This document shows, piece after piece, positions 1 through 25,865 of a DNA stretch of 32,000 nucleotides (positions are counted from its first letter, which is position 1; each line of letters starts with the position of its first letter). The stretch lies in assembly GCF_025273655.1 (NCBI RefSeq), contig NZ_CP045921.1, forward strand, positions 360,001 to 392,000, in the 5' to 3' direction. The notes below the pieces were generated by a model. That model had not been told where the DNA came from. It did not search any database and saw nothing but the letters and a program-made list of their open reading frames with translations. A program made the translations under genes and the position numbers. Source of the DNA: Candidatus Saccharimonadota bacterium. Lineage in GTDB: Bacteria > Patescibacteriota > Saccharimonadia > Saccharimonadales > Saccharimonadaceae.

Positions 1-174
1 CGCCGGCTGTATGCAGCGTTGTCCGTACTCCTCAGGTTGCCACTGGTGGCCTGCAAGGGCGATAGCGCCCTTGAGGAGTACTACGCACGACGTACCTGGC
101 TGCTACCGGTCGTGCTCGCGATCGCCGTAGTTGGCAGCGTTGCTTTTGTGATGTGCGTCATATTGTGGCCGTGA
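1..174 (+). CDS. 3' fragment of a CDS entering from upstream of the window; hypothetical, ends in a hydrophobic helix
   Basis: Frame 1 is open from base 1 to TGA at 172-174 (..RTWLLPVVLAIAVVGSVAFVMCVILWP*). It is absent from the ORF track because no start codon lies in the window. No family recognised. Confidence 0.35.
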   Translation, partial: RRLYAALSVLLRLPLVACKGDSALEEYYARRTWLLPVVLAIAVVGSVAFVMCVILWP

Positions 175-242
175 GGCTGCGTGTGCTGTTGTCGGGTGGA
201 GTCCGGATTTCCTTCCGCCTCCCCCAACCTATGCTGTCATAG

Positions 243-674
243 TTATGACGCTGTAGGCTGTGGGAGGTCAGCGCGACAATTTTTGCAGATACCGCTTAGC
301 TCGACGGTGTGGCTTTTCAATGTGAATTCATGCCTATTGGCGACAAGTGTTAACACGTCTTCGAGTGTGTCGTTGGCTATTTCCTCTACTCTGCCGCATT
401 GCTCACAGATCATATGGTGGTGATGTGGTTTGAATGGTTCGGCAAGTTCTGTAAAAGGTGTCCAGCCTCGGATAGTCGTCGTGGTGATGCCAAGTTTTGT
501 GAAAAGCTCCAGTGATCGATAGACACTGGCTCTGTCGATATTGGGTGTGCGTTTGGCTATTTCACCATTTTTGAGTGGTTCGTCAGTGGTTTTGAGTGTC
601 TCGAACACGGCCTGACGCGGCTTGGTGATACTTTGTCCTGCGTCTCGAAGGATTGATTCGAAGTCTGCATTCAT
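243..674 (-). CDS. Fur-family metalloregulator (Fur/Zur/PerR type)
   Basis: 143 aa with an N-terminal winged-helix-like region. It has HHHHMICEQCG (His cluster plus CxxC) and a C-terminal CKNC pair, as in Fur-family structural and regulatory metal sites. TATAAT (683-688, minus strand) lies 8 nt upstream of the ATG. Confidence 0.9.
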   Translation of the reverse strand: MNADFESILRDAGQSITKPRQAVFETLKTTDEPLKNGEIAKRTPNIDRASVYRSLELFTKLGITTTTIRGWTPFTELAEPFKPHHHHMICEQCGRVEEIANDTLEDVLTLVANRHEFTLKSHTVELSGICKNCRADLPQPTAS

Positions 675-795
675 ACATTACGATTATAGCATAAATTGCG
701 ACAGAATTGCATTTATAATTTTAAATGCGATATTTTTGCAAAATTACTAACTTATGCCGTATTATCAGATGATTATAAGAGAAAGGAGCAGTACG
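675..795. promoter_or_regulatory. Divergent promoter/operator region between the Fur-family gene and ORF 796-1170
   Basis: AT-rich region. 10-bp perfect palindrome TTTTGCAAAA at 734-743 overlaps a TTGCAA(736-741)-18 nt-TATTAT(760-765) promoter-like pair for the plus-strand gene. Imperfect inverted repeat AATTGCATTT..AAATGCGATA at 705-730. AAGGAG SD at 783-788. Confidence 0.4.
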
Positions 796-1170
796 GTGAA
801 CTATGAAGGTGATTTGAAACATTCATTCGCACATATTCAGATTAGTGATGCAGTAGTTCAAAATACAACGGGCGCACAGGCGGAACGTTTTACGCAGGCT
901 GGATTAACTGGATTTTTTGATGAGTTGCAAGACAGCTATGGCACTATCTTTGATCAACATCAGCTAGCGGGTATAATCACCAGTGAACATCATGATTTTG
1001 ATGCAGCGGGTGCTTTTGGTAAGTTTGCGGGCCGTTTGGCTGTGCGTGAAAGCGGTCTGGTAATCATCGAAAAACGTCTACACCATGAAGCGGCAGATAG
1101 CTTATTGAGTATATCATTGCAGGGCGCGCTTCGAAGGTCAGTTGGTAATCTACTGCACTACGCCCGCTAG
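796..1170 (+). CDS. Hypothetical protein (124 aa from GTG 796), divergent from the Fur-family gene
   Basis: ORF track gives 754-1170. I prefer GTG 796 because AAGGAG sits 7 nt upstream and the promoter-like hexamers would place the transcription start after ATG 754. Contains HHDFD and HHEAAD. No family recognised. Confidence 0.55.
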   Translation: MNYEGDLKHSFAHIQISDAVVQNTTGAQAERFTQAGLTGFFDELQDSYGTIFDQHQLAGIITSEHHDFDAAGAFGKFAGRLAVRESGLVIIEKRLHHEAADSLLSISLQGALRRSVGNLLHYAR

Positions 1171-2618
1171 CTCATGGAGGGCAAAAATGTATTGAGCGCA
1201 AGCCGACTTAACGCCTGAAAGATCGATTCGGGCGTATCTGTCGTGTTGACTACCGTTGCTGCAAGTGAAAATTCTGCACTCTCCTCGATACTGATAGTAT
1301 CTTTGAGGGCAATCAGGATTTTGTACTGCAGATCGGTAAGTTCAATCTCATTGTCGCTGGAGGTGTCGTTGTCGGTTTCTTTCTCCAGCTCAAGCGCGAT
1401 ACAGAGTTGCTCTGGACTGATGTCAAGCTTGTCGGCGATCTCATAGACCGAGTGTTGTAGCGATGAAGCTGTCAGTGGGGGGAGATCTTGCCCGGGAGAT
1501 TCCGCGTATTCAAGTAGGGAGTCTATGGTCATACGCGCCTCCTGGCGTGCTTCGGTGTCTATGGCGTCGAATGTCAGCTCGGGAGCGACGCTGGGTGCCA
1601 GTACGCTCAACGGTTCGACCGCTGGGTGATTCAGGGCATCTCTCGGTGATGCCTCAAGGAAATCATGCACGCCACTCGCGGAGAATGTCTCATCAACTTC
1701 TCCATCCGACTGAGTGTCATGGGTTTGGACTGTCGCTGCAACATACTCCCCGTCGAGATTTCCGTACAAGGCAGCATCCCACTCTTCTGCGGTGAACGAT
1801 GACTCGATTTCTGTCTCGGTGGCTGTATCGATTTCTGTGTGTAACTGGAGCACCTGTTCGAGCGTGTATTCCGGGAAGGCCACGGGGCTATGTGCCGTAG
1901 CCGACTCGAGGAGGATGGGTGCAGGAAACTCGTCTTCCCTATCGTCATGGTGGGTTGCGTCCAACACTGGGTCGTATGCGAGACCGATGCTTTCGGGTGG
2001 ATGCGTGCCTTGTGGCGGCGCCGGCAGCTCCTCCTCAGGTGCGTGCTGTATACGAGTGGTTTCGACTGGAATTTCTTGCACTTGCGGTATCATTGACTTG
2101 TTGCCTGCAGGGAAGGTGTCGAGTGCATGTGTTGCAGCCTCCGGGCGCATGGCGGTGGTCGGGGTGTTCGATGTCGCGGTGTCGTGTGGTGTGTCGGATG
2201 TATGCTTACTAGCGTTTCCCCTGGCGGCATCGACAGCCTGTGCGTCAACATCGTGACGCGTGCGGGTGTCGACTTCGGCGGCATGTGCGTGGGTAGGGGC
2301 ATCTGTATGAGTATGGGCAGCAGAGTCATTGTCTTCGATGTCGTCGCTTTCGAAAGTCTCTTTTTGCGGCGACTCACTGGGACTGGTGTCAAACAAATCT
2401 TCTGCAAGCTTGTCGGCTTGAGCCTGCGTGTGCTCGCAGTTCGCATCACAGATATGTCCTATCTCGCCATGAGCTGGGCTCTCGTGTGTATGCTCATGTT
2501 TGCCAAATAACTCCTCTGCAAGCTTGTCTGAGCTTTGCTGTGTATGCTCACACTCTGCTGTGCAGACATGTCCCAACTCTCCGTGGGGGGCATGGTGGGC
2601 GGTTTTGGTGTCAAACAA
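1167..2618 (-). CDS. Acidic His/Cys-repeat protein, downstream segment (frame stays open upstream to about 2765); probably one gene with 2681-2920
   Basis: 483-aa ORF beginning HGELGHVCTAECEHTQQSSDKLAEELF..HGEIGHICDANCEHTQAQADKLAEDLF. This is followed by ~300 aa of D/E/T/H-rich low complexity and a more ordinary C-terminal ~110 aa. The listed start is a TTG inside a repeat unit. Confidence 0.75.
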   Translation of the reverse strand: MFDTKTAHHAPHGELGHVCTAECEHTQQSSDKLAEELFGKHEHTHESPAHGEIGHICDANCEHTQAQADKLAEDLFDTSPSESPQKETFESDDIEDNDSAAHTHTDAPTHAHAAEVDTRTRHDVDAQAVDAARGNASKHTSDTPHDTATSNTPTTAMRPEAATHALDTFPAGNKSMIPQVQEIPVETTRIQHAPEEELPAPPQGTHPPESIGLAYDPVLDATHHDDREDEFPAPILLESATAHSPVAFPEYTLEQVLQLHTEIDTATETEIESSFTAEEWDAALYGNLDGEYVAATVQTHDTQSDGEVDETFSASGVHDFLEASPRDALNHPAVEPLSVLAPSVAPELTFDAIDTEARQEARMTIDSLLEYAESPGQDLPPLTASSLQHSVYEIADKLDISPEQLCIALELEKETDNDTSSDNEIELTDLQYKILIALKDTISIEESAEFSLAATVVNTTDTPESIFQALSRLALNTFLPSMS

Positions 2619-2805
2619 ATCTTCTGCAAGCTTGTCGGCTTGAGCCTGCGTGTGCTCGCAGTTCGCATCACAGATATGTCCTATCTCGCCATGAGCGGCA
2701 GGGTGGTCGTGGCTGTGTGTATTGAACAGATCTTCGGCAAATTTATCGGAACTTGCTGTGTATGCTCACACTCTGCTGTGCAGACATGTCCCAACTCTCC
2801 GTGGG
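2384..2805. repeat. Intragenic tandem duplication, unit about 220 bp, two copies
   Basis: Perfect 91-bp repeat 2384-2474 = 2606-2696 (offset 222). Perfect 53-bp repeat 2535-2587 = 2753-2805 (offset 218). The segments between are more diverged. Confidence 0.9.
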
Positions 2806-2920
2806 CAATTGCGTGCTCAGGGCCCGGCAACTCAAGGTCGTGGACATGAGGGTTGGGGCGCTCGAACTCATCATGTGTGTGTGGCTCCTGCTCTAGTGTC
2901 GCGGGTGTGTGTTCATGCAT
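2681..2920 (-). CDS. 5' segment of the same His/Cys-repeat gene, truncated by an apparent 1-nt frameshift near 2750-2755
   Basis: ATG 2920 overlaps the stop of the upstream ORF (ATGCATGA). Encodes MHEHTPATLEQEPHTHDEF..HGELGHVCTAECEHTQQ, then leaves the repeat frame (VPINLPK..stop). Confidence 0.6.
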   Translation of the reverse strand: MHEHTPATLEQEPHTHDEFERPNPHVHDLELPGPEHAIAHGELGHVCTAECEHTQQVPINLPKICSIHTATTTLPLMAR

Positions 2921-3563
2921 AGATGGGATTGTCCGCGTAGAGTAAGTCGAGGTGTATTCCGATACGACTTTGGGTCATGAGGTTGATTCGCTGTGCTTGC
3001 TCATCGGTGACGTGTTTGATGAAAAAGTCAAAAAAGCGATTTTCTGCGACAAAATATGTGGTGATAAGTAGGCGTTGATACGGCAAATTTTCTTGGCCGG
3101 TTTGCGTCCGCATCCAATACTCGACCTGTGGTGTATGGTCGACAAGTAGCGGAATGTTGCGGTGAAAAACGGGCTTACCATCTCGTTCGAGCCAGGTGTT
3201 GTAGAAGGCATCCCAGCTGTCGTACTCTGCAAATGCCTTGAACGTATCTGGACAAAAGCTCCCTGCCCGCCGCGAAAACTCATCGTAGAATTGATTGCGA
3301 CAGTGCGCAATGAAAGAGCGTGCAGCCTGATCGGGCACGTGTTTGACAAGACTTTGGCGAGTTTGGCGCGAAAACGGATGAGCCTCTGTCACTACGAGTG
3401 GCTGAAAGCCAAGCTTATCGAGGCCCTGCTGTTGCTGGATGGAGTAATCTTTGTCGCTTGTGTGGCTAATATTTACGACTGACCAATCTCGAAATCCATG
3501 TCTATTGATGTTTTCTGCGGAATAGCGCTCCCAGAAACTTTGAAAAGACTCATACATTATCAT
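2913..3563 (-). CDS. Hypothetical protein (216 aa), first gene of the operon with the His/Cys-repeat protein
   Basis: Long ORF with ordinary composition. Its stop overlaps the next gene's ATG by 8 nt, which suggests translational coupling. No family recognised. Confidence 0.75.
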   Translation of the reverse strand: MIMYESFQSFWERYSAENINRHGFRDWSVVNISHTSDKDYSIQQQQGLDKLGFQPLVVTEAHPFSRQTRQSLVKHVPDQAARSFIAHCRNQFYDEFSRRAGSFCPDTFKAFAEYDSWDAFYNTWLERDGKPVFHRNIPLLVDHTPQVEYWMRTQTGQENLPYQRLLITTYFVAENRFFDFFIKHVTDEQAQRINLMTQSRIGIHLDLLYADNPIYA

Positions 3564-3595
3564 CGGTATCTAATACTGTATAGGCGTGAACCATT

Positions 3596-3632
3596 TTCTG
3601 CAAAAATGTTGCAAAAACACAAAGTTTTGCGG
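3596..3632 (-). promoter_or_regulatory. Candidate operator or weak hairpin upstream of the 216-aa gene and downstream of pth
   Basis: On the minus strand, TTTTTGCA occurs twice with 11-bp spacing (plus-strand TGCAAAAA at 3599-3606 and 3610-3617). The same 8-mer sits in the fur promoter palindrome (733-740). GCAAAA(3611-3616)/TTTTGC(3625-3630) can also form a weak hairpin. Confidence 0.25.
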
Positions 3633-3638
3633 TATGAA

Positions 3639-4193
3639 CTATGTGTAGCTAGTCGAGTGAAATTTGTTCATGATACAGTCATCGATGATTTGTATGGCAG
3701 TCGGCTGGATATCTGTCAGGATTTTTTGTTCATTCGGGGTAAATTTACCAAGCACAAACGCCGTGGCGTCCATGCGCTCGGCATGCTCGGTCCAGATGCC
3801 GACGCGTGCTCGTTTGTAGTCTTGGCCGAGATGGGAGTTGAGTGATTTGATACCGTTGTTGCCGGCATCGCTCCCCCGCTCGCGGGTGCGAATGGTGCCA
3901 AGCGGCAACATGAGATCGTCATGCAGCACGAGTACATCTGCTGTGTCTATTTTGTAAAAATCCACCAATGCCCGTGCAGAGGCACCGGTGTCGTTGTAGT
4001 ATGTGGTCGGTTTTACGAGAAGGACTTTTTCGCCTGCGTCGCTAAACTCTGCGATGAGAGCTTGAAATTTTGTCTTTTCTGCAAACCTCGCACTGCGTGT
4101 TGCAGCATACGCATCAAGTAGTACGAAGCCCACGTTGTGTCTGGTGCCGCGAAATTCTGAGCCTGGATTGCCTTGGGCGAAGATGAGTTTCAT
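3639..4193 (-). CDS. pth: Peptidyl-tRNA hydrolase
   Basis: 184 aa. N-terminus MKLIFAQGNPGSEFRGTRHNVGF matches the conserved Pth GLGNPG..TRHN(V/I)GF signature. Typical length. Confidence 0.95.
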   Translation of the reverse strand: MKLIFAQGNPGSEFRGTRHNVGFVLLDAYAATRSARFAEKTKFQALIAEFSDAGEKVLLVKPTTYYNDTGASARALVDFYKIDTADVLVLHDDLMLPLGTIRTRERGSDAGNNGIKSLNSHLGQDYKRARVGIWTEHAERMDATAFVLGKFTPNEQKILTDIQPTAIQIIDDCIMNKFHSTSYT

Positions 4194-4215
4194 GTGTTTG
4201 TAGTATAACTAAGAT
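4194..4215. promoter_or_regulatory. 22-bp divergent region with overlapping -10-like hexamers
   Basis: TAGTATAACT at 4201-4210. Plus strand: TATAAC 4204-4209, 6 nt before ATG 4216. Minus strand: TATACT (4202-4207), 8 nt before the pth ATG 4193. Confidence 0.4.
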
Positions 4216-4476
4216 ATGGGAAAAGGTAAAAGATCACGGCATACTCATGAAGTATCAAACCCAGAAGCCGAGGCGCGAAGAGCTGAACAGGATCGTATCG
4301 TGGCGGAAGCGGCGCACCGCAAACGTATAGCTGGGTATATCAACGATTTAGGTGTAACGGGCGTGAGGGTGCGACAAGAGACGGTGCGTCGTCATGATGT
4401 CGATGACAACCCAAGGCATAAGCGCACAAGGGAGGAGGTATCAAAGCGCGCAATTCGAGAATCCGGAGCGGATTAG
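4216..4476 (+). CDS. Small basic hypothetical protein (86 aa)
   Basis: The ORF exactly fills the gap between pth and the oxygenase gene. Arg/Lys-rich, with a -10-like hexamer 6 nt upstream and no SD. No family recognised. Confidence 0.45.
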   Translation: MGKGKRSRHTHEVSNPEAEARRAEQDRIVAEAAHRKRIAGYINDLGVTGVRVRQETVRRHDVDDNPRHKRTREEVSKRAIRESGAD

Positions 4477-5300
4477 GCAGCGAAGTACTGTGCAAATTCC
4501 GTACGGAGCATATCGTAATTGAAGCCAGGTGTCCTCTCTTGCAGCCTGCCATAAGCTGCGCGGTCGTAGCGTGGAGTACGTACAAGTGGCACGAAGCAGA
4601 CGATGGCGTTGCGGCCAAGTTTGGCGGTTGTATTGTTCGCAATGATCTGGTGGCATAGACCTTTGATCTCTCCTTTGCTATACAACTGGGTTTGCATGCT
4701 CGCAAACATGACGGCTTGATCGTCGGAGACGGGCATCGGGAGCCACATGCGTGTTGATGGGTCGAGGCGTTCACAGCCATCGGTCGACTCATAGAGATGC
4801 AGCGTCAAGCCGCTATGATCGACATGCGGCTCGCCGATGACGGTGCCGACAGCCACTGGTGGATAGTGCAAAAAGCGTACGAAGGCTGAAGCGGCGCTCG
4901 CAGCTGCTTCGGCAGCAAAGCCGTTTGTGCCGTAGTGCTGTTCGATATGTGCGCCTTGTGCGGCGATAAACTGCTCGAGTTCATCAAAAAGCGCACGCGC
5001 CGCGATGGCAAACTGAGCTGTCGCTGGGTCGTGCATACTTATAGCTATCAGATCTTCGAGACTGGCACGAGTGACATCGAAGTTTTCTTTGATATCTTTG
5101 CTTTCGCGTTGGCCATCGCCTTTTTTCTCGTAGCCAGTGCCAGACTGCAAGCTGAGCGCGGCATAGCGTTGCTTGGTGTCGTCTGGCTGTGCTAGGAAAT
5201 CTTGCCATGCAATTGCTGCTTTTGCGACGCACTGCTTGATATTTGATGGGTATTCCACCATCTCTACCCCATCTTGTGTGAGTGATAATCGTTCTGTCAT
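4473..5300 (-). CDS. 2-oxoglutarate/Fe(II)-dependent oxygenase (isopenicillin N synthase-like family)
   Basis: HVDHSG (HxD) followed about 60 aa later by GLCHQI and then an Arg-containing strand, which fits the 2OG-Fe(II) facial triad layout. ORF track start is GTG 5351. I prefer ATG 5300, which has TACGCT 6 nt upstream. Confidence 0.85.
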   Translation of the reverse strand: MTERLSLTQDGVEMVEYPSNIKQCVAKAAIAWQDFLAQPDDTKQRYAALSLQSGTGYEKKGDGQRESKDIKENFDVTRASLEDLIAISMHDPATAQFAIAARALFDELEQFIAAQGAHIEQHYGTNGFAAEAAASAASAFVRFLHYPPVAVGTVIGEPHVDHSGLTLHLYESTDGCERLDPSTRMWLPMPVSDDQAVMFASMQTQLYSKGEIKGLCHQIIANNTTAKLGRNAIVCFVPLVRTPRYDRAAYGRLQERTPGFNYDMLRTEFAQYFAA

Positions 5301-5370
5301 ATGTCTAGCGTAGCGAGTTTGTGCAGATGAAAAAAGTGAGCCGCTACTCACTAGATTTTGCCAGTAAATA

Positions 5371-6063
5371 TTACCTGGCTATTTGTTCGTGGTAAAATCC
5401 CTGCAGCGTTTCGAGTGTGTCGTCTCGCAGGGCAGCGAGAGTTTTTGGTATGAAGTCGATATGGTCGTTTGGTCTGCTGTCGTTGGCGAGTGCTTCATCT
5501 ATCGGCACCCAGAAATTATCGCCAAATTCTGTGCTCGTTGGTTCGCCGCTCGCGTCGGTGCAGAGGCAAAACGGAAACAAGACATCAGAAAAAAGCTGTG
5601 CATCTCGATAGAATATACGCCGCTCGGTGCCGATATAACGAAATGTGCCCGTAAGGCCAGTCTCCTGCATGAGTTTGCGTGCAGCTCCCTCGAGCAGTGG
5701 TTCTGATTTGAGTATGGTGCCACCAGGAATGCCGACGATGCCGTAGGATGGTTGCGCGGTTCGGCGTTGGTTGAGAATGTGGAGTATCCCGTCTATCTCG
5801 CGCGCTACGACGAGCAGGACATTGTACTTGAATAGTCGATCACCCTGGTCGCTGGTATGATGGGTGTCAGCAACATGGCGCCTGCCCTGCTCGGAAAGTG
5901 TGTAGCCTTGGTGTGTTTTCTCTACTATGCCATCTGACACGAGTTTGCGCAGATGGTAGTTATATAAATCGTTGGGAATTTCGGCATCCGGTTTGAGTTT
6001 GGCATATCGCAAGGTATCCGCCTGCTTGAGCCGGGAGATGATGTCACGTCGTATATCGGACAT
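5371..6063 (-). CDS. Winged-HTH / Nudix-domain fusion protein, putative Nudix-related regulator
   Basis: N-terminal ~65 aa resemble ArsR/MarR-like wHTH (LYNYHLRKLVSDGIVEK). The C-terminal part has a Nudix-box-like GGTILKSEPLLEGAARKLMQETGL in which RE-x-EE reads RKLMQE. Its ATG lies 1 nt after the der stop. Confidence 0.85.
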   Translation of the reverse strand: MSDIRRDIISRLKQADTLRYAKLKPDAEIPNDLYNYHLRKLVSDGIVEKTHQGYTLSEQGRRHVADTHHTSDQGDRLFKYNVLLVVAREIDGILHILNQRRTAQPSYGIVGIPGGTILKSEPLLEGAARKLMQETGLTGTFRYIGTERRIFYRDAQLFSDVLFPFCLCTDASGEPTSTEFGDNFWVPIDEALANDSRPNDHIDFIPKTLAALRDDTLETLQGFYHEQIAR

Positions 6064-8231: not shown

Positions 8232-9344
8232 TTACTCCTTTCTGGGCGATGGATAGATGGAGAGACCAGACAGTTGGCTGACATCATACCGATGCGTGAC
8301 GCCACTATGGCGCTGCCAGCTGCTCACCATGAGGGTGAGATTGTTTTTCGTCGACAGCGGATGAATGAATCCGCCGTAGAGAAAGTCCAATTCGTGGTAT
8401 GTGACTTGCACTGTCGGTGCACTCCACTGACCAGTTGGCTTGTCGGTGTAGCGTGTCACGATCGCGCCAGTGGTGAGATCGAAATACGCCATAACCCATG
8501 TGCCGTCCTGCAGTTTGCGCAGCGACGGTTCACCGAAGCGTCCACGGAGGATGCCTCGAGTGCAAGTGGTTGTCCACTTGGTGCCATTCCAGCAGCGGTA
8601 AGCAGTTGGCGTGAGAATATCCCGCCAGGGTACCCGTCGTAGGAACATGGGACCATCGACACGACCAGCGCGGACGCCGATCATGTAGACGTAGTCGCCA
8701 TCGAGCTGCATGGAGACCATCTGGGTAGCACTTCTGCCACCGCGACTACCCCATCTCACGCCGGTCCGATGAAAACTATTGCCGTCATCGGTGCTAAGCG
8801 CAAGCTCAGAGTAATTGGTGGTCCAAGTACCTGGTGGCCATCCTGAAACGCTCTGGAGTGACATTACCTGACGACCGTCGGGTAATACTACAACATCATT
8901 TGGTATAGCGCTGACTTCTCCGCCGCTGTTGTGGCCGTTGTGAGTCACTTCGGGTGTATAGCCGTCTCCTTGGATGCCTGCAGCATCGTCGAACTGAATC
9001 ATCTGATGCTTTGGGTCGCTCGACGAATGCAGGATCACAGGTGAACGCCAGCCGTTACCACTATCGGGCGTTGGCGACGAAAATGTATCACCAAATGTAA
9101 TACCTACACTGCCGTCACGTCGCAGATATGGGATACCTAGATCGGTGCCACATACACTCCAACGTGCACAGGCCTCGTTATTCGCCGTGCCGGTGAGGCG
9201 TGTGAGCGAGCGAGGCTGTTCGGGCGCGTAGGGCTGCTTAGGCTCAACGCGCTCGAGTGCACCAGTGGTGCCGCTGCCAAGCGTGACTGCCGTACAAGAC
9301 GACAATGCTGCAAGGCAAAGCAAGATCAGCAAGAAACGTCTCAT
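8232..9344 (-). CDS. Secreted lipoprotein, DUF4185-like (putative glycoside hydrolase fold)
   Basis: MRRFLLILLCLAALSSC lipobox. The motifs CGTDLG..FGDTF..WRSPVILHSS..DGDYVYMIGVRAGR..FGEPSL..LYGGFIHP match my recollection of DUF4185. ATG 9344 is preferred over TTG 9356 because GGAGA lies upstream of it. Confidence 0.75.
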   Translation of the reverse strand: MRRFLLILLCLAALSSCTAVTLGSGTTGALERVEPKQPYAPEQPRSLTRLTGTANNEACARWSVCGTDLGIPYLRRDGSVGITFGDTFSSPTPDSGNGWRSPVILHSSSDPKHQMIQFDDAAGIQGDGYTPEVTHNGHNSGGEVSAIPNDVVVLPDGRQVMSLQSVSGWPPGTWTTNYSELALSTDDGNSFHRTGVRWGSRGGRSATQMVSMQLDGDYVYMIGVRAGRVDGPMFLRRVPWRDILTPTAYRCWNGTKWTTTCTRGILRGRFGEPSLRKLQDGTWVMAYFDLTTGAIVTRYTDKPTGQWSAPTVQVTYHELDFLYGGFIHPLSTKNNLTLMVSSWQRHSGVTHRYDVSQLSGLSIYPSPRKE

Positions 9345-9452
9345 TGCTTTCTCCAATCTAAATTGTCTCTGTACGACTACCGGATCTCGATAGTATATAC
9401 ATTATACCATAAATACTTTATTTTTTCAAGTATTGATGATATAATTATATGT

Positions 9453-17135: not shown

Positions 17136-18008
17136 TTATGGTAGTAGTGGTCCAATGCTCAGCATAACGCATAGCAGAAGGATGTGATACATCGCCAGAC
17201 GGAACATGCGCTTCCGGGCCCATTCTTCTGGCTTTTTTGCAGAGAAACCTTGGTAGCCGACGTATATCCAATAGAGCCCAGCGATGAGCATGATGACGAA
17301 ATAGATCCAGCCAGTGTAGCCAAGCGGTGTGAGCGCTACGGTACAGAGTACATAGAGGATGGTGTTGATGAAGATCCAGCGAATGGTAGCCGGGACTCCG
17401 CGTACGACAGAGATGACTGGTACACCAGCGGCTTTGTATTCTTTGCGGCGGTAGATGGAGATGGAATAGAACTCCGGGAACTGCCAAAAGAAGAGGATGA
17501 GAAATACCATGATAAGGCCGATGTCGATAGACCCAGATACAGCCGCGTAGCCGCCCGCTATCGGCATGGCGCCAGAGATACTACCCATAGTGGTGCCATG
17601 GAGCGAGAGACGCTTGGACCAGGCGCCGTACAGCCACACGTAGGTGACGAACCCGATGAGGCCGATAGCGACGACAAGCCAGTTGGTCCAAAGTGCGAGC
17701 ACGGCAGTGCCGAGCACGAGGAGCACGATACTATAGGTTACCATGGCCGGACCACTCACCTCTCCGGTGACGCTCGGGCGCTTTTTTGTCCGGGCCATGA
17801 TCTGGTCGATGTCTTGGTCGAGGTAGTTATTCAACACGCAAGCTGCCGAGACGACAAATGTCATGCCGAGTGTAGTAGCGATGAAACCAACCCAGCTGAA
17901 CTGGTGGAAGTGCCCGGCTGCGAAGAGGTATCCAGCAACACCCGTGAGGACATTCCCGTACATCACGCCAGGCTTAACGAGTTGGTAGTACGCCTTGATC
18001 TTTGACAC
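17136..18008 (-). CDS. cyoE: Heme O synthase (protoheme IX farnesyltransferase)
   Basis: 290-aa polytopic UbiA-family protein. N-terminus YYQLVKPGVMYGNVLT, NNYLDQDID and Asp-rich motifs. Last gene of the cyo cluster. Confidence 0.93.
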   Translation of the reverse strand: MSKIKAYYQLVKPGVMYGNVLTGVAGYLFAAGHFHQFSWVGFIATTLGMTFVVSAACVLNNYLDQDIDQIMARTKKRPSVTGEVSGPAMVTYSIVLLVLGTAVLALWTNWLVVAIGLIGFVTYVWLYGAWSKRLSLHGTTMGSISGAMPIAGGYAAVSGSIDIGLIMVFLILFFWQFPEFYSISIYRRKEYKAAGVPVISVVRGVPATIRWIFINTILYVLCTVALTPLGYTGWIYFVIMLIAGLYWIYVGYQGFSAKKPEEWARKRMFRLAMYHILLLCVMLSIGPLLP

Positions 18009-18014
18009 TACGCG

Positions 18015-18380
18015 CTAAAAACCTTTTTCGTTCTGTTTGAGCATGTACTTTTCCATGGCGTCGCCGCTCATGCCCATGCGGTAGTTGAGGTTGTACATCA
18101 CCCACAGTGAACCGCACACGACGACGAGCATCATGACAAGCGCATAGACAAAAGTCCAGTTGCGCCAGCGAGGCTTGGCTTCACCGCGGAGGTGCAGGAA
18201 ATAGTAGACCTGTACGACGAACTGGACGACGGCGAGCAGCAGTACAAACGCTGCTGTCGTGGTGGCATCGTACCAGTGAAATTTGACTGACAAATACGCC
18301 AGTACTGTAAGCACCGCTGCGCCCGCAAAGCCAATGATGTATTGCTGCGTTTCATATCGACGTACAGATGCCTTACTCAT
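18015..18380 (-). CDS. cyoD: Quinol oxidase subunit IV
   Basis: 121 aa with three hydrophobic helices. Position and size match CyoD/QoxD. Overlaps the cyoC stop by 4 nt. Confidence 0.85.
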   Translation of the reverse strand: MSKASVRRYETQQYIIGFAGAAVLTVLAYLSVKFHWYDATTTAAFVLLLAVVQFVVQVYYFLHLRGEAKPRWRNWTFVYALVMMLVVVCGSLWVMYNLNYRMGMSGDAMEKYMLKQNEKGF

Positions 18381-18964
18381 GATATAGCTCCTAATAAATA
18401 CACGATAGTGAAGATGAAGATCCAGACGAGATCGAGGAAGTGCCAGAAGACGGCGAAAAGACCAAATTTGCGAGCTGCATCTGGAGTGACGCCGCGCTTC
18501 GAGATGTAATCTCCCAGCGCGATTGCCCAGATAATACCGATGAGGATGTGCAGTCCATGCGTGCCGACGAGCGTGAAGAATGCCGACAGGAAGGCGCTAT
18601 GTGCGGGGCCGTGCCCTGCTCGGATGAGTTCGCCAAATTCGTACAGCTCCATAGTGACGAAGCCGATGCCAAGGGTGATGGTGGTACCGAGTAGAATGAG
18701 TGCGTTTCGCTTCTCCCCTGCTTTGATTGCCAAGTACGCCAAGCCACACGTGAAGCTGCTGATGAGGAGTAGGAATGTCTCGACCATGACGAATTCAAGA
18801 TTGAAGATGTCTTGACTGGCGGGTCCACCATTGGTGCCGTGACGGAGTATCACATAGGTAGCAAACAGACTGGCGAAGACCATGATGTCCGTCATGAGGT
18901 AGAGCCAGAAGCCGAGCGAGGCTTTCTCTGCTTTTTCCTTCAGATGTGCTGCGTGCGATGTCAT
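18377..18964 (-). CDS. cyoC: Quinol oxidase subunit III
   Basis: 195 aa. FWHFLDLVWIFIFTIVYL and a five-helix layout are typical of heme-copper oxidase subunit III. Confidence 0.92.
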   Translation of the reverse strand: MTSHAAHLKEKAEKASLGFWLYLMTDIMVFASLFATYVILRHGTNGGPASQDIFNLEFVMVETFLLLISSFTCGLAYLAIKAGEKRNALILLGTTITLGIGFVTMELYEFGELIRAGHGPAHSAFLSAFFTLVGTHGLHILIGIIWAIALGDYISKRGVTPDAARKFGLFAVFWHFLDLVWIFIFTIVYLLGAIS

Positions 18965-20928
18965 GCCCGCGCCTCCTTGTCGAGTCTATAGAGTTCGTCT
19001 GCCGTGAGTATGTACTCGGTGTCGTCATTGAGCGTGCGGCGGATGATAAGTGTTACGACGGCTATGAGTGCGACCACCAAAATCCACCAGACATGCCAGA
19101 TAAACGCGAAGCCGACCATACCGGCTGCGACAGCGATGTAGACGCCTTCGGCAGTGTTTTTGGGTAGTTCGATGTCTTCGTAGTCTTCGCGCTTCGGCTT
19201 TTTGATGCCGTCTTTCTTTGCATACCACCATTCGTCGCGGCGCGTTACTTTTGGTGCGATAGCGAAATTATAAAACGGTGCCGGTGACGGGATCGACCAT
19301 TCGAGCGTACGACCGTCCCATGGATCGCCCGTAGTGTCGGCCAGCTCTTTGCGTTTCCAGACGCTATACACCATGCCGAGGATCATGAGTACGGCGCCGA
19401 GACCGATCACACAGACGCCGACGGCCGAGACGACGAAGAGCGGCACCCAAGACGGATCATCGTAGGTATTGATGCGCCGCACGGCGCCCATGAGACCTAG
19501 GATATAGAGCGGAATAAATGCCAATACGAAGCCTACTTGCCAGCAGTATGCTGAGAGCTTGCCAAACTTGTCGTGGAGTTTGAATCCGAAAATCTTTGGC
19601 CACCAATAGTATATGCCTGCGAAGTAACCAAACAACACGCCACCGATAATGACATTGTGGAAATGCGCCACGAGGAACATCGTGTTGTGTACCTGGAAAT
19701 CGAGCGCTGGTACCGCCATCATGACACCACTGGCGCCGCCGATCGTGAATGTGACCGCAAAGCACATAAACCAGACCATCGGCGCGGTGAAACGGATGCG
19801 GCCTTTGTACATGGTGAAGATCCAGTTGAACAGTTTAACCCCCGTCGGGATGGCGATGATCATGGTCATAATGCCAAAGAATGCGTTGACGTTTGCACCC
19901 GCCCCCATGGTAAAGAAGTGGTGTTGCCAGACGACAAAGCTGAGGAACATGATAGCGATGAGCGCGGCCACCATGGTGGTGTAGCCAAACAGGCGTTTGC
20001 GTGCAAACGTGGCTACGACTTCCGAGAAGATACCAAATGCCGGCAGTATGAGAATATAGACCTCTGGGTGCCCCCACGCCCATATGAGATTGATATACAT
20101 CATGGGGTTGCCACCCGCTTCGGAAGTAAAGAAGTGCATACCTGCTACCCTATCGAGCGCGAGCATACCGAGCGTGGCGGTAAGCACTGGAAACGCCAAC
20201 ATGACAAGCACCATCGACACAAGTACGCTCCAGGCGAATACGGGCATCTTCATGAGCGTCATGCCAGGCGCACGGTGTTTGAGGATGGTAACGGTGAAAT
20301 TGATACCAGAAAGCAAGCTGCCTATACCAGATATCTGCAGCGCCCATATCCAATAATCCACTCCCGGTCCAGGGTTGTATTCTATACCAGTCAGTGGTGG
20401 ATATCCAAGCCAGCCGCCATTGCTGAAGCCACCAAAGACGAGTGACGCGTTGATGATGACCATGCCGGTAAAGAAGAGCCAGAAACTCACCGAGTTCATA
20501 AACGGAAATGCCACGTCACGCGTGCCGAGTAGCATCGGCAGTGCGATATTGATAAGACCAAACATAGCGCCCATGCCGACGAAAAAGATCATGATACTAC
20601 CGTGTGCAGTGAAGACTTCTTGGAATGTCTGAGTATTGAATAGCTCCACACCCGTCTGCGCGAGTGCCGTCTGTGCGCGCAGCATGAGTGCATCGGCGCC
20701 ACCGCGCAGTAGCATGAGAATAGCAATACCCATGTACATGACACCAATCTTCTTGGCGTCGAGGGTGGTGATCCATTCACGCCAGATATACCCCCAAAGT
20801 TTGAAGTAAGTGATGGCGGCGAGCACGCCGATGATAGCTAGTGGCATGCCGATAGCAGCGCCCATGGTGACAGGATCGTGCGGGAGGTATTCTGCCGAGA
20901 GTCGACCGATTAGCCATGACGGATCCAT
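18961..20928 (-). CDS. cyoB: Quinol oxidase subunit I (heme-copper oxidase catalytic subunit)
   Basis: 655 aa. WAWGHPEVYILILPAFGIFSEV and HHFFTMG..FLVAHFHNVIIGG are signature His ligand regions. Confidence 0.97.
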   Translation of the reverse strand: MDPSWLIGRLSAEYLPHDPVTMGAAIGMPLAIIGVLAAITYFKLWGYIWREWITTLDAKKIGVMYMGIAILMLLRGGADALMLRAQTALAQTGVELFNTQTFQEVFTAHGSIMIFFVGMGAMFGLINIALPMLLGTRDVAFPFMNSVSFWLFFTGMVIINASLVFGGFSNGGWLGYPPLTGIEYNPGPGVDYWIWALQISGIGSLLSGINFTVTILKHRAPGMTLMKMPVFAWSVLVSMVLVMLAFPVLTATLGMLALDRVAGMHFFTSEAGGNPMMYINLIWAWGHPEVYILILPAFGIFSEVVATFARKRLFGYTTMVAALIAIMFLSFVVWQHHFFTMGAGANVNAFFGIMTMIIAIPTGVKLFNWIFTMYKGRIRFTAPMVWFMCFAVTFTIGGASGVMMAVPALDFQVHNTMFLVAHFHNVIIGGVLFGYFAGIYYWWPKIFGFKLHDKFGKLSAYCWQVGFVLAFIPLYILGLMGAVRRINTYDDPSWVPLFVVSAVGVCVIGLGAVLMILGMVYSVWKRKELADTTGDPWDGRTLEWSIPSPAPFYNFAIAPKVTRRDEWWYAKKDGIKKPKREDYEDIELPKNTAEGVYIAVAAGMVGFAFIWHVWWILVVALIAVVTLIIRRTLNDDTEYILTADELYRLDKEARA

Positions 20929-20929
20929 G

Positions 20930-21868
20930 CTACATGGCCTCCATCTGGCTATGATCCATGGTGCTCATGTCGTGTGAGTCAGAAGTCGCTGCGCTCGATT
21001 GGCCGTGTCCCATGTATTTCATAACTATCGTATTATACAGATTTTTGTCCATCAGGTGGTAGGTTTGCGGCTCAGATATCACACTTGGTTTGGCGAGCAT
21101 CTTGTAGGTCGATTCGTCGATCATGTCGCCTGCTTTCATGGCCTTCTCTGGTGCGGTGAGGGTCCAGCTGGTGAAGTCTACTTCTGGCATGACTTTGGCA
21201 GTAAACGTCATCTTGGCGTAGCCTTCGCCATTGATGTTGGTGTTATAGCCTTTGTACTCACCTGTCTTGTTCGCGATAAGGTTGAGCTGCGAGTCCATAC
21301 CGTTCATGGAGTAAATCTGCGAACCAAGCGCCGGAATCCAGAAGGCACTCATAGGTGCGTCGGCAGCAAGGCTGAAATGAACCGGCCTATCGACAGGAAG
21401 CGGCAATTCGTTGACAGTCGCAACTTCGTATTCGGGATACAGGAACAGCCATTTCCACTGCAGGGCGACTACCTGCACTTCGAGCGGCTTCTTGTCGCTG
21501 GCGATAGGTTTGTAGGGGTCGAGTGAGTGACTCGTCTGCCAGGTGACGACACTCAGTATACCGATGATGACGATAGGAATTCCCCACCACAGTGCTTCGA
21601 GTTTGGCGCTGCCATCCCATTCTGGTTTGTAGTCGGCTTTGCCCCCTTCGCGGTAGCGCAGCGCAAAAACAGTGAGTATCACGAAGACCGGGATGATGAC
21701 GACCAGGCTTAGGATGACGGTAAAGATGAGGAGTTTGCGCTGGCTGTCGGCTACTTGTCCGCTCGGCATGAGTACGGGTATATCGACGCCGCGTAGCAGT
21801 ACCCACATCAGGACGACGAAGGCGCTGACGCCGAGTGGGATGATACTGGCTTTCAAGAAACGTTTCAT
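20930..21868 (-). CDS. cyoA: Quinol oxidase subunit II (no CuA ligands)
   Basis: I start at ATG 21868 (MKRFLKASIIPLG..), because the ORF-track extension to 22075 overlaps yaaA. Two TM helices plus a cupredoxin-like domain. The region aligned to the CuA site (GYNTNINGEGYAKM) has no Cys, as in quinol oxidases. Confidence 0.9.
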   Translation of the reverse strand: MKRFLKASIIPLGVSAFVVLMWVLLRGVDIPVLMPSGQVADSQRKLLIFTVILSLVVIIPVFVILTVFALRYREGGKADYKPEWDGSAKLEALWWGIPIVIIGILSVVTWQTSHSLDPYKPIASDKKPLEVQVVALQWKWLFLYPEYEVATVNELPLPVDRPVHFSLAADAPMSAFWIPALGSQIYSMNGMDSQLNLIANKTGEYKGYNTNINGEGYAKMTFTAKVMPEVDFTSWTLTAPEKAMKAGDMIDESTYKMLAKPSVISEPQTYHLMDKNLYNTIVMKYMGHGQSSAATSDSHDMSTMDHSQMEAM

Positions 21869-21933
21869 GTTGCTTCTATGATAGCGCTTATGGCAGCAAC
21901 TTCGCAAGCGTATCCGTGTATACTTGAAGGAAC

Positions 21934-22719
21934 ATGCTACAGATTTTACTTCATTCGTCCAAGACGATGCGTTCTGCGCCACCTGCGCCGCTACCATATC
22001 AGGCACCTCGATTACTCCATGAGACTCTGGGATTGGCTGGATATTTGGCGTCGCTGAATACCGACGAAATTGCAAAGGCTATGAAACTTTCACCCAAAAA
22101 AGCTGCTGATACTCACGAGCTGCTGGCGACATGGTCGTCTGACCCGGGAGTGACTCGCCCGGCGGTCGATGCGTTTATTGGTGATATCTATAGTGGCCTG
22201 CAAGTTGCGTCACTATCGGATGCGGATCGCATGTATGCGAATGAGCATCTCCTGATACTGTCTGGCCTCTACGGGGGCTTAAGGGCCCTAGACAGTGTGA
22301 CACCGTATCGACTCGAGATGGGATATCGCCTGCCAAATGAGCGCTATCGGAATCTCTACGAATATTGGGGCGATAGGATTGCTACATTGTTACATCCCCA
22401 AGTGACGGCAATCATAAACTTGTCGGCCGTCGAGTATACAAAAGCACTACTTCCCTACGCGTCCCAGCCTGTCGTGACGCCAAAGTTCTTGACTATTAGC
22501 CCTAAGACTGGTGAGTCGACATTCGTGGTGGTGCACGCCAAAATTGCCCGCGGCGCGTTTGCGCGCTGGATGATCGTAAACCGTGTCGAGGACGTGGCTC
22601 GGCTGCAGGAATTTAGCGATCTGGGATACGTATATGACGATAGGCTTAGTTCATCCGAAGAACCAGTATTTGTCTGCCGGGAATTTGGCGGGCTTGGGCT
22701 GAGTGTACGACTAACGTAG
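21934..22719 (+). CDS. yaaA: YaaA-family peroxide stress protein (UPF0246/DUF328)
   Basis: 261 aa. MLQILLHSSKTM N-terminus, GDIYSGL and LSGLYG..LD.V.PYRLEM motifs are characteristic of YaaA. Confidence 0.9.
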   Translation: MLQILLHSSKTMRSAPPAPLPYQAPRLLHETLGLAGYLASLNTDEIAKAMKLSPKKAADTHELLATWSSDPGVTRPAVDAFIGDIYSGLQVASLSDADRMYANEHLLILSGLYGGLRALDSVTPYRLEMGYRLPNERYRNLYEYWGDRIATLLHPQVTAIINLSAVEYTKALLPYASQPVVTPKFLTISPKTGESTFVVVHAKIARGAFARWMIVNRVEDVARLQEFSDLGYVYDDRLSSSEEPVFVCREFGGLGLSVRLT

Positions 22720-25027: not shown

Positions 25028-25046
25028 ATCTGTAGTATAGCGCACA

Positions 25047-25865
25047 TCACTGTCCTGGTGGTAGTTGCTGGACGACAGCCTGCACAACGCTCGGTATCAT
25101 TGCACCTACGAGTTCATGGCTGGCAAGCGTCTGTCTGAGTGTGACATTTGGCATGGTGCGTGCAAGATATGTGAGATTTGCGGGCACCACCAGAGGGTCG
25201 AGCTGGCCACGTACAAGCGTGATTGGTAGAGTAAGATGCTCGATATCGTTCATGGCGGTCTGGTTGACGATGGCCGCCTGGAGAGTGGCCATATAGGTGG
25301 CGACGTTGTCGCTCGTGACGCTGAATACGTTGTTGACAAGTTTGTATTTCATGGCAATGCACGCTACGCGTACGAAATCTTCGGGGTGTTTCTGGACGAC
25401 TGTGTAGAGGTCGCGAAGTATAGCGTCTGGCTTGCGGATCAGCTGTCTCGTCGCTGGATCTTCCGGACGATAAAAAGGCGGACTGACAAGTACGAGAGAT
25501 TTGACGAGTAATGGATATCGCCTGGCTATCTCGACTGCTACGAGCGAACCGAGCGAATGACCGACGATCATCAGCTGGTCTGGGATGCCGAGCGAGAAAT
25601 AGGTCTGCAGTATACTGCGAGCTTGCTCGTGGGTATTGTATCGGATGTGCGATGGGTGTGGCGAGCGGCCAAATCCAAGCAGATCAACGGTAATGATACG
25701 TATGTTATGTGGTAAGCCGTGAATCACGTTGTCCCAAGCATGACCGTTGTTGCCGATGCCATGAACCATGAGGAGAGTGGCTCGTGGGTGCGGTGGATCT
25801 TGCACGACATCGACGTGGAGCCGATACGGAATACGCAGCCAGCGATGAACGAGATGGTCGTACAT
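25047..25865 (-). CDS. Alpha/beta-fold hydrolase
   Basis: 272 aa. HGIGNNGHAW oxyanion region and nucleophile elbow VGHSLGS. C-terminal His context (ASHELV). Confidence 0.88.
   Translation of the reverse strand: MYDHLVHRWLRIPYRLHVDVVQDPPHPRATLLMVHGIGNNGHAWDNVIHGLPHNIRIITVDLLGFGRSPHPSHIRYNTHEQARSILQTYFSLGIPDQLMIVGHSLGSLVAVEIARRYPLLVKSLVLVSPPFYRPEDPATRQLIRKPDAILRDLYTVVQKHPEDFVRVACIAMKYKLVNNVFSVTSDNVATYMATLQAAIVNQTAMNDIEHLTLPITLVRGQLDPLVVPANLTYLARTMPNVTLRQTLASHELVGAMIPSVVQAVVQQLPPGQ

Follow-up and report, generated by a model that had tools for sequence, protein, structure and literature searches.

A repeated cysteine-histidine protein and its gene cluster in Saccharibacteria: a candidate module of a Zur-type regulon

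What could a series of short Cys- and His-rich repeats be doing in a Saccharibacterium, close to a gene of the Fur family? The question is raised by a 32-kb stretch of contig NZ_CP045921.1 from a Candidatus Saccharimonadota bacterium (hereafter the window; all coordinates are window positions). Here, three genes that we named A (encoding a 216-aa protein), B (the motif-repeat protein) and C (a small protein encoded convergently) lie together near a gene for a Fur-family regulator. On balance, we lean toward the view that the cluster is a Saccharibacteria-specific module of a Zur-type regulon, that is, one under a zinc-responsive member of the Fur family, and that it consists of an A-B operon, the convergent C and an autoregulated regulator.

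Metal homeostasis is essentially undescribed in the ultra-small, host-dependent bacteria of the candidate phyla radiation (CPR)/Patescibacteria, and for this group the full-text literature yielded no report of Zur or of zinc regulation. A hypothetical protein of Candidatus Mycosynbacter amalyticus (Saccharibacteria, TM7, Patescibacteria) shows 100% identity to the product of A, which identifies the source of the window. This organism is among the few cultivable Saccharibacteria, so the predictions made here are directly testable. If the module scavenges zinc, it would be relevant to the contest for metals between an epibiont or predator and its actinobacterial host, or to the stripping of metals from that host.

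A conserved gene order and a palindrome at its promoters

Alignment by eye of the regions upstream of A revealed the pattern TGC[AG]A-N5-T[CT]GCA. The 32 kb contain exactly three occurrences, against 0.31 expected, and this number was reached in 1 of 100 shuffles. A position weight matrix (PWM) built from 22 nonredundant sites, the window's own three included, has the consensus TGCAACA-w-TGTTGCA, a 15-bp 7-1-7 inverted repeat, which is the architecture of classical Fur, Zur and PerR boxes. The sites were compared across 15 related loci (L001 to L015), which together with the window amount to about 180 kb. The predicted operator is found upstream of A in all 12 distinct lineages and also at fur and target promoters, and all matches in the ~180 kb lie upstream of A, C/fur or transporter genes, bar one in L013. 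The pattern had been fixed on L001 to L011; in L012 to L015, added afterward, the operator occupies the same positions. The two-site fur/C arrangement of the window recurs in L001 and L005. The odd match, at L013 12967-12981, is a third operator copy downstream of a 473-aa gene, and it precedes an apparent truncated fragment of an HxlR-type helix-turn-helix protein, with no intact open reading frame (ORF).

The position of the sites relative to promoter elements was judged by eye. Copy 1 overlaps the -35/spacer of the TATAAT promoter of fur. Ahead of A, the right operator half-site TTGCA[AG] coincides with the putative -35 element, followed 17 nt on by a TAnnnT-type -10 in the window, L001, L003 and L009 and by GATACT in L008. 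Since this half-site doubles as the -35, a bound regulator would occlude the -35 of the A-B promoter. A generic promoter scan did not call the A-B promoter, and no Rfam model matched window positions 1-6000 at E<=0.1, hence no riboswitch was detected there. An initial annotation of this DNA had proposed Fur/Zur-type control and had pointed to region 3564-3638 as a candidate target. The conserved palindrome at 3599-3613 falls within that region, and its further copies at the fur promoter and ahead of zinc-type transporters support the proposal as far as sequence comparison can.

The gene order is equally stable. At all 11 loci for which sequence is available, B comes after A, and the stop of A and the start of B overlap or abut across lineages; the overlap pointed out earlier for the window, in ATGCATGA, thus proved to be a conserved coupling. 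C is in synteny at 9 of the 10 loci whose sequence reaches that far, and the operator always stands ahead of it. A Fur-family gene adjoins the cluster in 10 of 12 lineages, often divergent from A. In the window, it lies 493 bp past the 3' end of B, in agreement with the earlier figure of about 490 bp; the conserved convergent gene C, contained in that stretch, had been overlooked. Consequently, the coupling behind the two-gene operon first proposed stands, but the unit is larger, with at least three genes (A, B and C) plus the regulator (Table 1).

Gene A had been called unassignable, and it remains so in spite of a confident model. Its product matched no profile in Pfam, NCBIfam or the PDB sequences. 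A profile of A run against genome contigs gave at least one confirmed locus among the matches listed. The 33 homologues contain no Pfam domain, and the few of them that are named by source belong to Saccharibacteria or Minisyncoccia; 26 columns are invariant, including LGFQP, D142-H143, R164 and K183. AlphaFold2 predicts a beta-alpha-beta-alpha-beta-beta-alpha arrangement twice over, with a predicted local distance difference test (pLDDT) score of 95 and a predicted template modeling (pTM) score of 0.88. The two halves are homologous (hhalign probability 93.6%, E 2e-7), H34 pairing with H143 and K74 with K183. We are therefore confident, on this modeled structure, that A is a pseudo-dimer derived from an internal duplication. 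Foldseek found no fold match for the model at E<=1e-3 in the PDB or BFVD. The vicinal-oxygen-chelate fold (glyoxalase/hydroxyphenylpyruvate dioxygenase) gave the best nonsignificant matches, and it was rejected: the best one, 1ss4, had E 9e-3, template modeling scores were 0.19 to 0.26 with a root mean square deviation of about 14 Å, no Pfam Glyoxalase model matched, and we treated the result as no match. What A has in common with that fold are its paired beta-alpha-beta modules, with the conserved His residues H34 and H143 placed symmetrically.

The orthologues of C are 107 to 139 aa long, and the true start of the window copy may be the ATG at 769. They share the motifs H-x-LAH, FG-x-FAGR-x3-E-x-GL and LHH, and no match was found in Pfam, NCBIfam or the PDB sequence profiles. 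None of A, B and C matched the PADLOC models of anti-phage defense or the PHROGs models of phage proteins.

Table 1. Positions of the cluster genes, of the parts of gene B and of the predicted regulatory sites in the window
Feature	Position	Strand	Remarks
Fur-family regulator, 143 aa, probably Zur	243..674	-	PF01475, E 1.5e-20, 74 bits vs. cutoff 23.1
Predicted operator copy 1, TGCGACAGAATTGCA	697..711		fur/C divergent promoter region; 25.2 bits
Predicted operator copy 2, TGCGATATTTTTGCA	726..740		fur/C intergenic region; 26.4 bits
Gene C, small protein, 138 aa as listed	754..1170	+	Convergent with B, overlaps end of B
Gene B, acidic repeat protein, 584 aa with one base restored	1167..2920	-	Intact orthologue P0001
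B as sequenced: two ORFs, 79 aa and 483 aa	2920..2681; 2618..1167	-
C-terminal all-helical domain of B with conserved ..YKIL..LK..SIE.S.EFS.. segment (predicted)	1170..1565	-	AlphaFold2, conserved columns
Acidic region of B, predicted disordered (~aa 180-445)	1587..2384	-	AlphaFold2 pLDDT <50
Repeat 4 (type B)	2391..2474	-
Repeat 3 (type A), PHGELGHVCTAECEHTQQSSDKLAEELF	2505..2588	-
Repeat 2 (type B), AHGEIGHICDANCEHTQAQADKLAEDLF	2613..2696	-
Repeat 1 (type A), broken by frameshift	2724..2806	-
Frameshift site	2752..2758	-	CAGCAA/GT, one A short vs. intact copy (CAGCAAAGC)
Gene A, 216 aa, stop overlaps ATG of B	2913..3563	-	Overlap in ATGCATGA
Putative A-B promoter	3575..3603	-	-35 TTGCAG (3603-3598), 17-nt spacer, -10 TACAGT (3580-3575)
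Predicted operator upstream of A, minus-strand reading TGCAACATTTTTGCA	3599..3613		28.9 bits, the window's top site

The metal sensed by the regulator

The content of the regulon points to zinc. In L008, the operator precedes a string of genes for ZnuA (PF01297, 1.7e-88), an ATP-binding cassette (ABC) transporter ATPase, an ABC-3 permease and an ArsP_1 permease, the last directly following the importer genes. The binding protein clearly belongs to the zinc-specific YcdH/AdcA group, with Bacillus subtilis YcdH at 5.9e-65, Streptococcus pneumoniae AdcA at 2.6e-60 and Lmb also among its matches, versus much weaker matches to manganese and iron types (YfeA 1e-36, PsaA 1.4e-25). Since the operator stands ahead of a zinc-type ABC importer in relatives, the regulator is, judged by regulon content, most likely Zur. 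At the equivalent position in L003, L011, L012 and L013, an ArsP_1 permease is found with a TIGR03943 subunit (149.7 bits vs. cutoff 88.8), and the operator precedes these genes in L003, L012 and L013. The literature on DUF1980, TIGR03943 and ycgQ in connection with Zur yielded nothing useful. In three lineages (L003 9759-, L011 9430-, L013 11453-12874), the ArsP_1/TIGR03943 genes are followed by a conserved gene whose product, about 470 aa long, begins with a hydrophobic segment; it has only a weak Big_5 match and is probably in the same regulon.

The regulator sequence allows a second reading, in which the architecture is the same but the protein senses iron, manganese or peroxide, as Fur, Mur or PerR do, and the units of B bind Fe(II) or Fe-S or act as redox thiol switches. 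Eight orthologues of the regulator share an invariant HHHH-x2-C-x2-C (H84-H87, C90, C93), E105, H122, E125 and a C-terminal C-x2-C (C130, C133), and this second C-x2-C fits the structural zinc site of the Fur family. Its best matches are to Fur in both NCBIfam (Fur models 78.5 and 57.3 bits, Zur 37.4) and the PDB (Campylobacter jejuni Fur 2.8e-18, Mycobacterium tuberculosis Zur 1.5e-15, PerR 2.5e-11), with Zur and PerR lower but significant, and the Fur-like E76 and H84-H87/E105/H122 are kept. Furthermore, PerR of B. subtilis controls a zinc-uptake ATPase, so a zinc importer is not strict proof of Zur. Nevertheless, we consider sensing of iron, manganese or peroxide unlikely. In addition to the zinc-specific type of the co-regulated binding protein, no iron, haem, siderophore, catalase, Dps-type or peroxide gene was seen beside the ~22 operator sites, and the regulators do not have the DNA-binding-domain His that serves as a ligand at Fur H32/PerR H37.

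Gene B: reading frame, repeat unit and predicted fold

In the window, B is interrupted. Three-frame translation showed that frame 0 ends in ...HGELGHVCTAECEHTQQ, and that the sequence SSDKFAEDLF... is carried on in frame +2. Inserting one A between 2753 and 2752 (CAGCAA/GTTCC; CAGCAAAGCTC in the intact copy) gives a protein of 584 aa with a pI of 4.4 and four H-x4-H-x-C-x3-C-x-H units, starting at aa 40, 77, 113 and 151. The one-base repair near 2750-2755 suggested by the initial annotation is thus confirmed, and the four units have the sequences that it gave. The N-terminal 195 aa comprise 13.8% His, 13.8% Glu and 4.1% Cys, and the middle region is rich in A, T, E, D and P.

The closest intact copy is P0001, a 511-aa orthologue that is 97% identical and uninterrupted in three independent assemblies. 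It has only two repeats. Compared with P0001, the window B contains an additional 73-aa pair of type A and type B repeats, and the frameshift sits inside that extra pair, a point that had also been missed. The extra and the second pair are near-identical at their ends (1 difference in 54 nt and 3 in 96 nt) and strongly diverged over the ~65 nt just past the frameshift. In the stretch SSDK(F/L)AE(D/E)LF, 10 codons past the shift, all 10 differ from those of repeat pair 2, 8 being synonymous and 2 conservative. This excess of synonymous differences argues that the repaired frame has been under purifying selection, and the frameshift is either very recent or a homopolymer error or artifact. Across the repeat pairs (2391-2806), the almost identical ends and an A-to-B linker saturated with synonymous changes suggest gene conversion between repeats or recombination with a diverged allele, to judge from the sequence pattern.

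If the frameshift is real, B may be dead in this genome, reduced to a 79-aa stub and perhaps an internally initiated fragment in a decaying locus. We find this doubtful, though a serious contender. The frameshift is present in the window sequence, and the organism is kept in co-culture, where the function of B could be dispensable. In a second lineage, L012, B carries an in-frame TAA (L012 8169) and has a single degenerate repeat with CEQ for CEH (Gln for the His at +6), so loss of B does seem to happen. The codon pattern, on the other hand, indicates selection on the repaired frame until very recently, and loss of one base in a run of A is a typical error of long-read sequencing or assembly. 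Moreover, B is intact in the 97%-identical strain, and A, C, fur and all three operators are intact in the window. L012 itself has no adjacent fur and retains both operators and the ArsP_1/DUF1980 pair.

The extent of the B family depended on how it was searched. A word-indexed homology search with the repaired B and with an alignment of eight B sequences returned only the near-identical P0001, the index evidently failing on the composition of B. Of 1.84 billion representative proteins, compared exhaustively by phmmer with the three intact window repeats, 19 matched at E<=1e-3, and 16 of these, P0001 included, are proteins of 474 to 639 aa with repeats near the N terminus. Two long matches, P0045 and P0049, were set aside: they are repeat proteins that lack Cys and have no relation to B. 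Independently of these searches, the neighbors of A homologues in other Saccharibacteria include a protein of 504 to 592 aa with the motif of B. By sequence, B is a real, narrow, lineage-restricted family, and the cluster was seen only in Saccharibacteria.

Conservation of the His and Cys positions among orthologues had been set beforehand as a test that could overturn the metal-site idea, and the idea withstood it. Numbering from the first Cys of the unit (C0), 57 distinct units from ~20 orthologues all keep C0 and C+4 (57/57 each). H-2 is present in 50 (the remaining seven have a shifted HGHEG-x-C), H+6 in 50 and H-7 in 41 of the 57. In the helix downstream, A+11, [DN]+12 and A+15 are conserved, as are L+18 (53/57) and F+19 (55/57). 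The consensus unit is therefore H-G-x2-G-H-[VI]-C-x3-C-x-H-x-Q, followed by an amphipathic A-[DN]-x2-A-[DE]-x-L-F helix, and the family carries one to four copies. All orthologues are acidic (pI 4.1 to 5.2, D+E ~20%), and their Cys residues lie almost entirely within the repeats. We also considered a HypA-like N-terminal 'MHE' nickel motif, which was rejected as not conserved in orthologues, and a beta-clamp-type Q-x2-L-F for the A-D-x-L-F helix, whose first position is Ala rather than Gln and which has no supporting context.

The phmmer matches also contained P0052 (132 aa; L016/L017 1024-1422), which has a signal-peptide-like N terminus and three PHG-x-PGHVCDKNCP units. It has the HG-x2-GH-V-C-x3-C core in common with B and lacks the later His and the L-F helix. 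Its gene adjoins a Crp/Fnr-family regulator on short metagenome contigs, and the shared mini metal site may have come into use there independently.

The AlphaFold2 model of B, computed on P0001 with 16 sequences, agrees with the disordered middle and ordinary C-terminal domain expected from the first reading of the sequence. The repeats are modeled at pLDDT 65 to 76, with a helix over the A-D-x-L-F segment after each Cys motif. Residues 109-372 (264 aa), equivalent to window residues 182-445, fall below pLDDT 50, and an all-helical C-terminal domain follows, with helices at 383-509 and pLDDT up to 89. The statement that the motif belongs to no known family was borne out: B had no match in Pfam, NCBIfam or the PDB sequence profiles (chance-level only in the PDB), and its model had no fold match in the PDB by Foldseek at E<=1e-3.

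Short repeated Cys units beside an unassigned enzyme-sized protein could also suggest B as a precursor with several cores for a ribosomally made, Cys-modified peptide (RiPP), or as a secreted effector, with A as the modifying enzyme. This seems very improbable to us. The B orthologues have no hydrophobic or transmembrane segment, no signal peptide and no leader or cleavage-site pattern. Besides, another 300 to 400 aa come after the repeats, a conserved folded domain among them. The surroundings show no conserved RiPP-type enzyme, protease or exporter, and the links of the locus are to a metal regulator and to metal transporters.

The C termini open a further reading. Among 17 distinct orthologues, -AA ends occur in 5 (ALAA three times, LHAA and YAAA) and a terminal Ala in 10; ALAA-, LHAA-, YAAA- and ALVA-type ends are seen in P0035, P0036, P0041, P0042, L009 and others. 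C-terminal degrons of ClpXP, of the ssrA type, resemble such -AA ends. Thus, B could be a zinc-sensing switch rather than a carrier, in which metal occupancy would alter how the L-F helices and the C-terminal domain engage A or another target, and proteolysis through the ssrA-like C terminus would set the level of B. The one to four repeats fit a tunable sensor as well as a store, and a long flexible linker separates the metal sites from the folded C-terminal domain. We hold this to be a rather slim possibility, below that of a different sensed metal: the window B ends in -PSMS and its L001 relative in -TAAL, no target of such a switch was identified, and no sigma factor, kinase or protease is conserved next to the cluster at the examined loci.

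A tentative mechanism, related systems and neighboring genes

If the regulator is Zur, the parts could work together as follows. In its metal-loaded form, it would bind the 7-1-7 palindrome over the A-B -35 and the two fur/C sites. When zinc is scarce, it would leave the operators, and A, B, C and fur would be transcribed together with the uptake systems. B would be a cytoplasmic, acidic and largely disordered protein, and in each of its N-terminal units two Cys and two or three His might coordinate a single Zn(II). The invariant L-F helix may serve as a docking element, the most economical partner being the co-translated, pseudo-dimeric A. A, B and C could then capture scarce zinc or hand it over, as a chaperone or buffer, in step with the co-regulated importers.

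Several observations weigh against this scheme. The sequence of the regulator resembles Fur as much as Zur and allows no assignment among Fur, Zur and PerR; it is also without the Cys of the regulatory site in actinobacterial Zur. The window sites score 25 to 29 bits with the PWM versus 5.8 for the next best, a gap that is somewhat inflated by the presence of these sites in the PWM itself. The nearest named relatives of the ArsP_1 permease, all below cutoff, are Cu/Zn efflux proteins, so some of the regulon could have to do with a surplus of metal and not a shortage. It is also not self-evident what use a Cys/His zinc binder would be when made in zinc starvation. The breaks in B, by the frameshift in the window and by the TAA in L012, imply that the protein may be dispensable. 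Finally, contact between A and B is a guess from translational coupling, and we infer metal binding by B and metal-dependent expression of the cluster.

The regulatory logic is that of known Zur regulons. In Gram-positive bacteria, such as B. subtilis with its ycdHI-yceA/znuABC importer genes, the COG0523 GTPase ZagA/YciC and ZinT, there is likewise a Fur-family repressor, a promoter-overlapping 7-1-7 box and autoregulation, and a YcdH/AdcA-type zinc importer is co-regulated with cytoplasmic accessory proteins. The new parts are the operator sequence, the unit and architecture of B, and A and C. The box TGCAACA-w-TGTTGCA is unlike the Bacillus Zur, Fur and PerR boxes, and A, B and C have no homology to the COG0523, ZinT, FolE2 or ribosomal paralogues of Zur regulons. 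Membership of the COG0523 family (CobW/ZigA/ZagA) was rejected for all three, none of them containing a cobW or GTPase domain with C-x-C-C, and no GTPase is present. A more far-reaching version of our scheme would make A-B-C a new zinc-trafficking system of Saccharibacteria that does the job of the COG0523 GTPase, with the L-F helices of a B shuttle docking on the symmetric halves of A, itself a new fold, and the ssrA-like degron resetting B when zinc returns. We offer it as speculation that is more likely wrong than right.

B also has partial counterparts among metal-binding proteins. Like Hpn and Hpnl of Helicobacter pylori, the tails of HypB and SlyD, and SmtA, it would be a cytoplasmic protein with short His/Cys-rich units in variable copy number and expected multi-site binding of divalent metals. 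Unlike them, it has a strict 27-aa unit with two Cys four apart, flanking His and the L-F helix, as well as a several-hundred-residue disordered acidic region and a folded C-terminal domain, and there is no sequence similarity. The initial annotation had held that B is neither a ZAS protein nor metallothionein-like, and the defining features of both are indeed absent. With the ZAS domain, B would share an N-terminal His/Cys zinc site, partner-binding helices, a long linker and a C-terminal domain. However, an identity as a ZAS anti-sigma factor was rejected on the spacing (H-x-C-x3-C-x-H rather than H-x3-C-x2-C), the tandem units, the absence of a conserved sigma neighbor and matches that were all below threshold; moreover, A, the proposed partner, is modeled as an alpha/beta pseudo-dimer, where ZAS systems have a sigma factor. 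Bacterial metallothioneins (SmtA/BmtA) have ~55 aa and ~9 Cys and bind Zn4; B, with 474 to 639 aa, 2 Cys per ~37-aa unit and no Pfam match, was not placed among them. No paper was found in the literature on the operator sequence, on the unit or architecture of B, on A or on C. The outcome is a testable operator, a defined minimal regulon and three uncharacterized families, in one of which the repeated Cys2His2-3 unit suits metal chemistry at the peptide level; another is a confidently modeled domain that is unmatched among solved structures.

The stretch upstream of A (4473-5351 and 5371-6063, minus strand) has genes for a weakly matched 2-oxoglutarate (2OG)-Fe(II) oxygenase-like protein and for a NUDIX protein whose N terminus carries a winged helix, together with those for Pth and the GTPase Der. 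The same upstream gene order is found in L001 and L005, so the placement of the cluster is conserved in the sub-lineage.

Farther along the window lies a haem-copper quinol-oxidase-like cluster with COX1 (E 2e-145), COX3, a COX_ARM-containing subunit II and a UbiA-family prenyltransferase, beside which are a YaaA peroxide-stress protein and an MMPL transporter (region 17136-22075, minus strand; 21934-22719, plus strand; 22721-25087, minus strand). It is noteworthy that a reduced Saccharibacterium should have a respiratory oxidase, an enzyme for which copper and haem would be required. The window also encodes a DUF4185 protein (8232-9356, minus strand; E 2.9e-72). This family corresponds to the GH183 endo-D-arabinanases, and a DUF4185 member of M. 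amalyticus has been tried as a construct, which was insoluble (PMC10115798). The DUF4185 protein plausibly breaches the wall of the Gordonia host.

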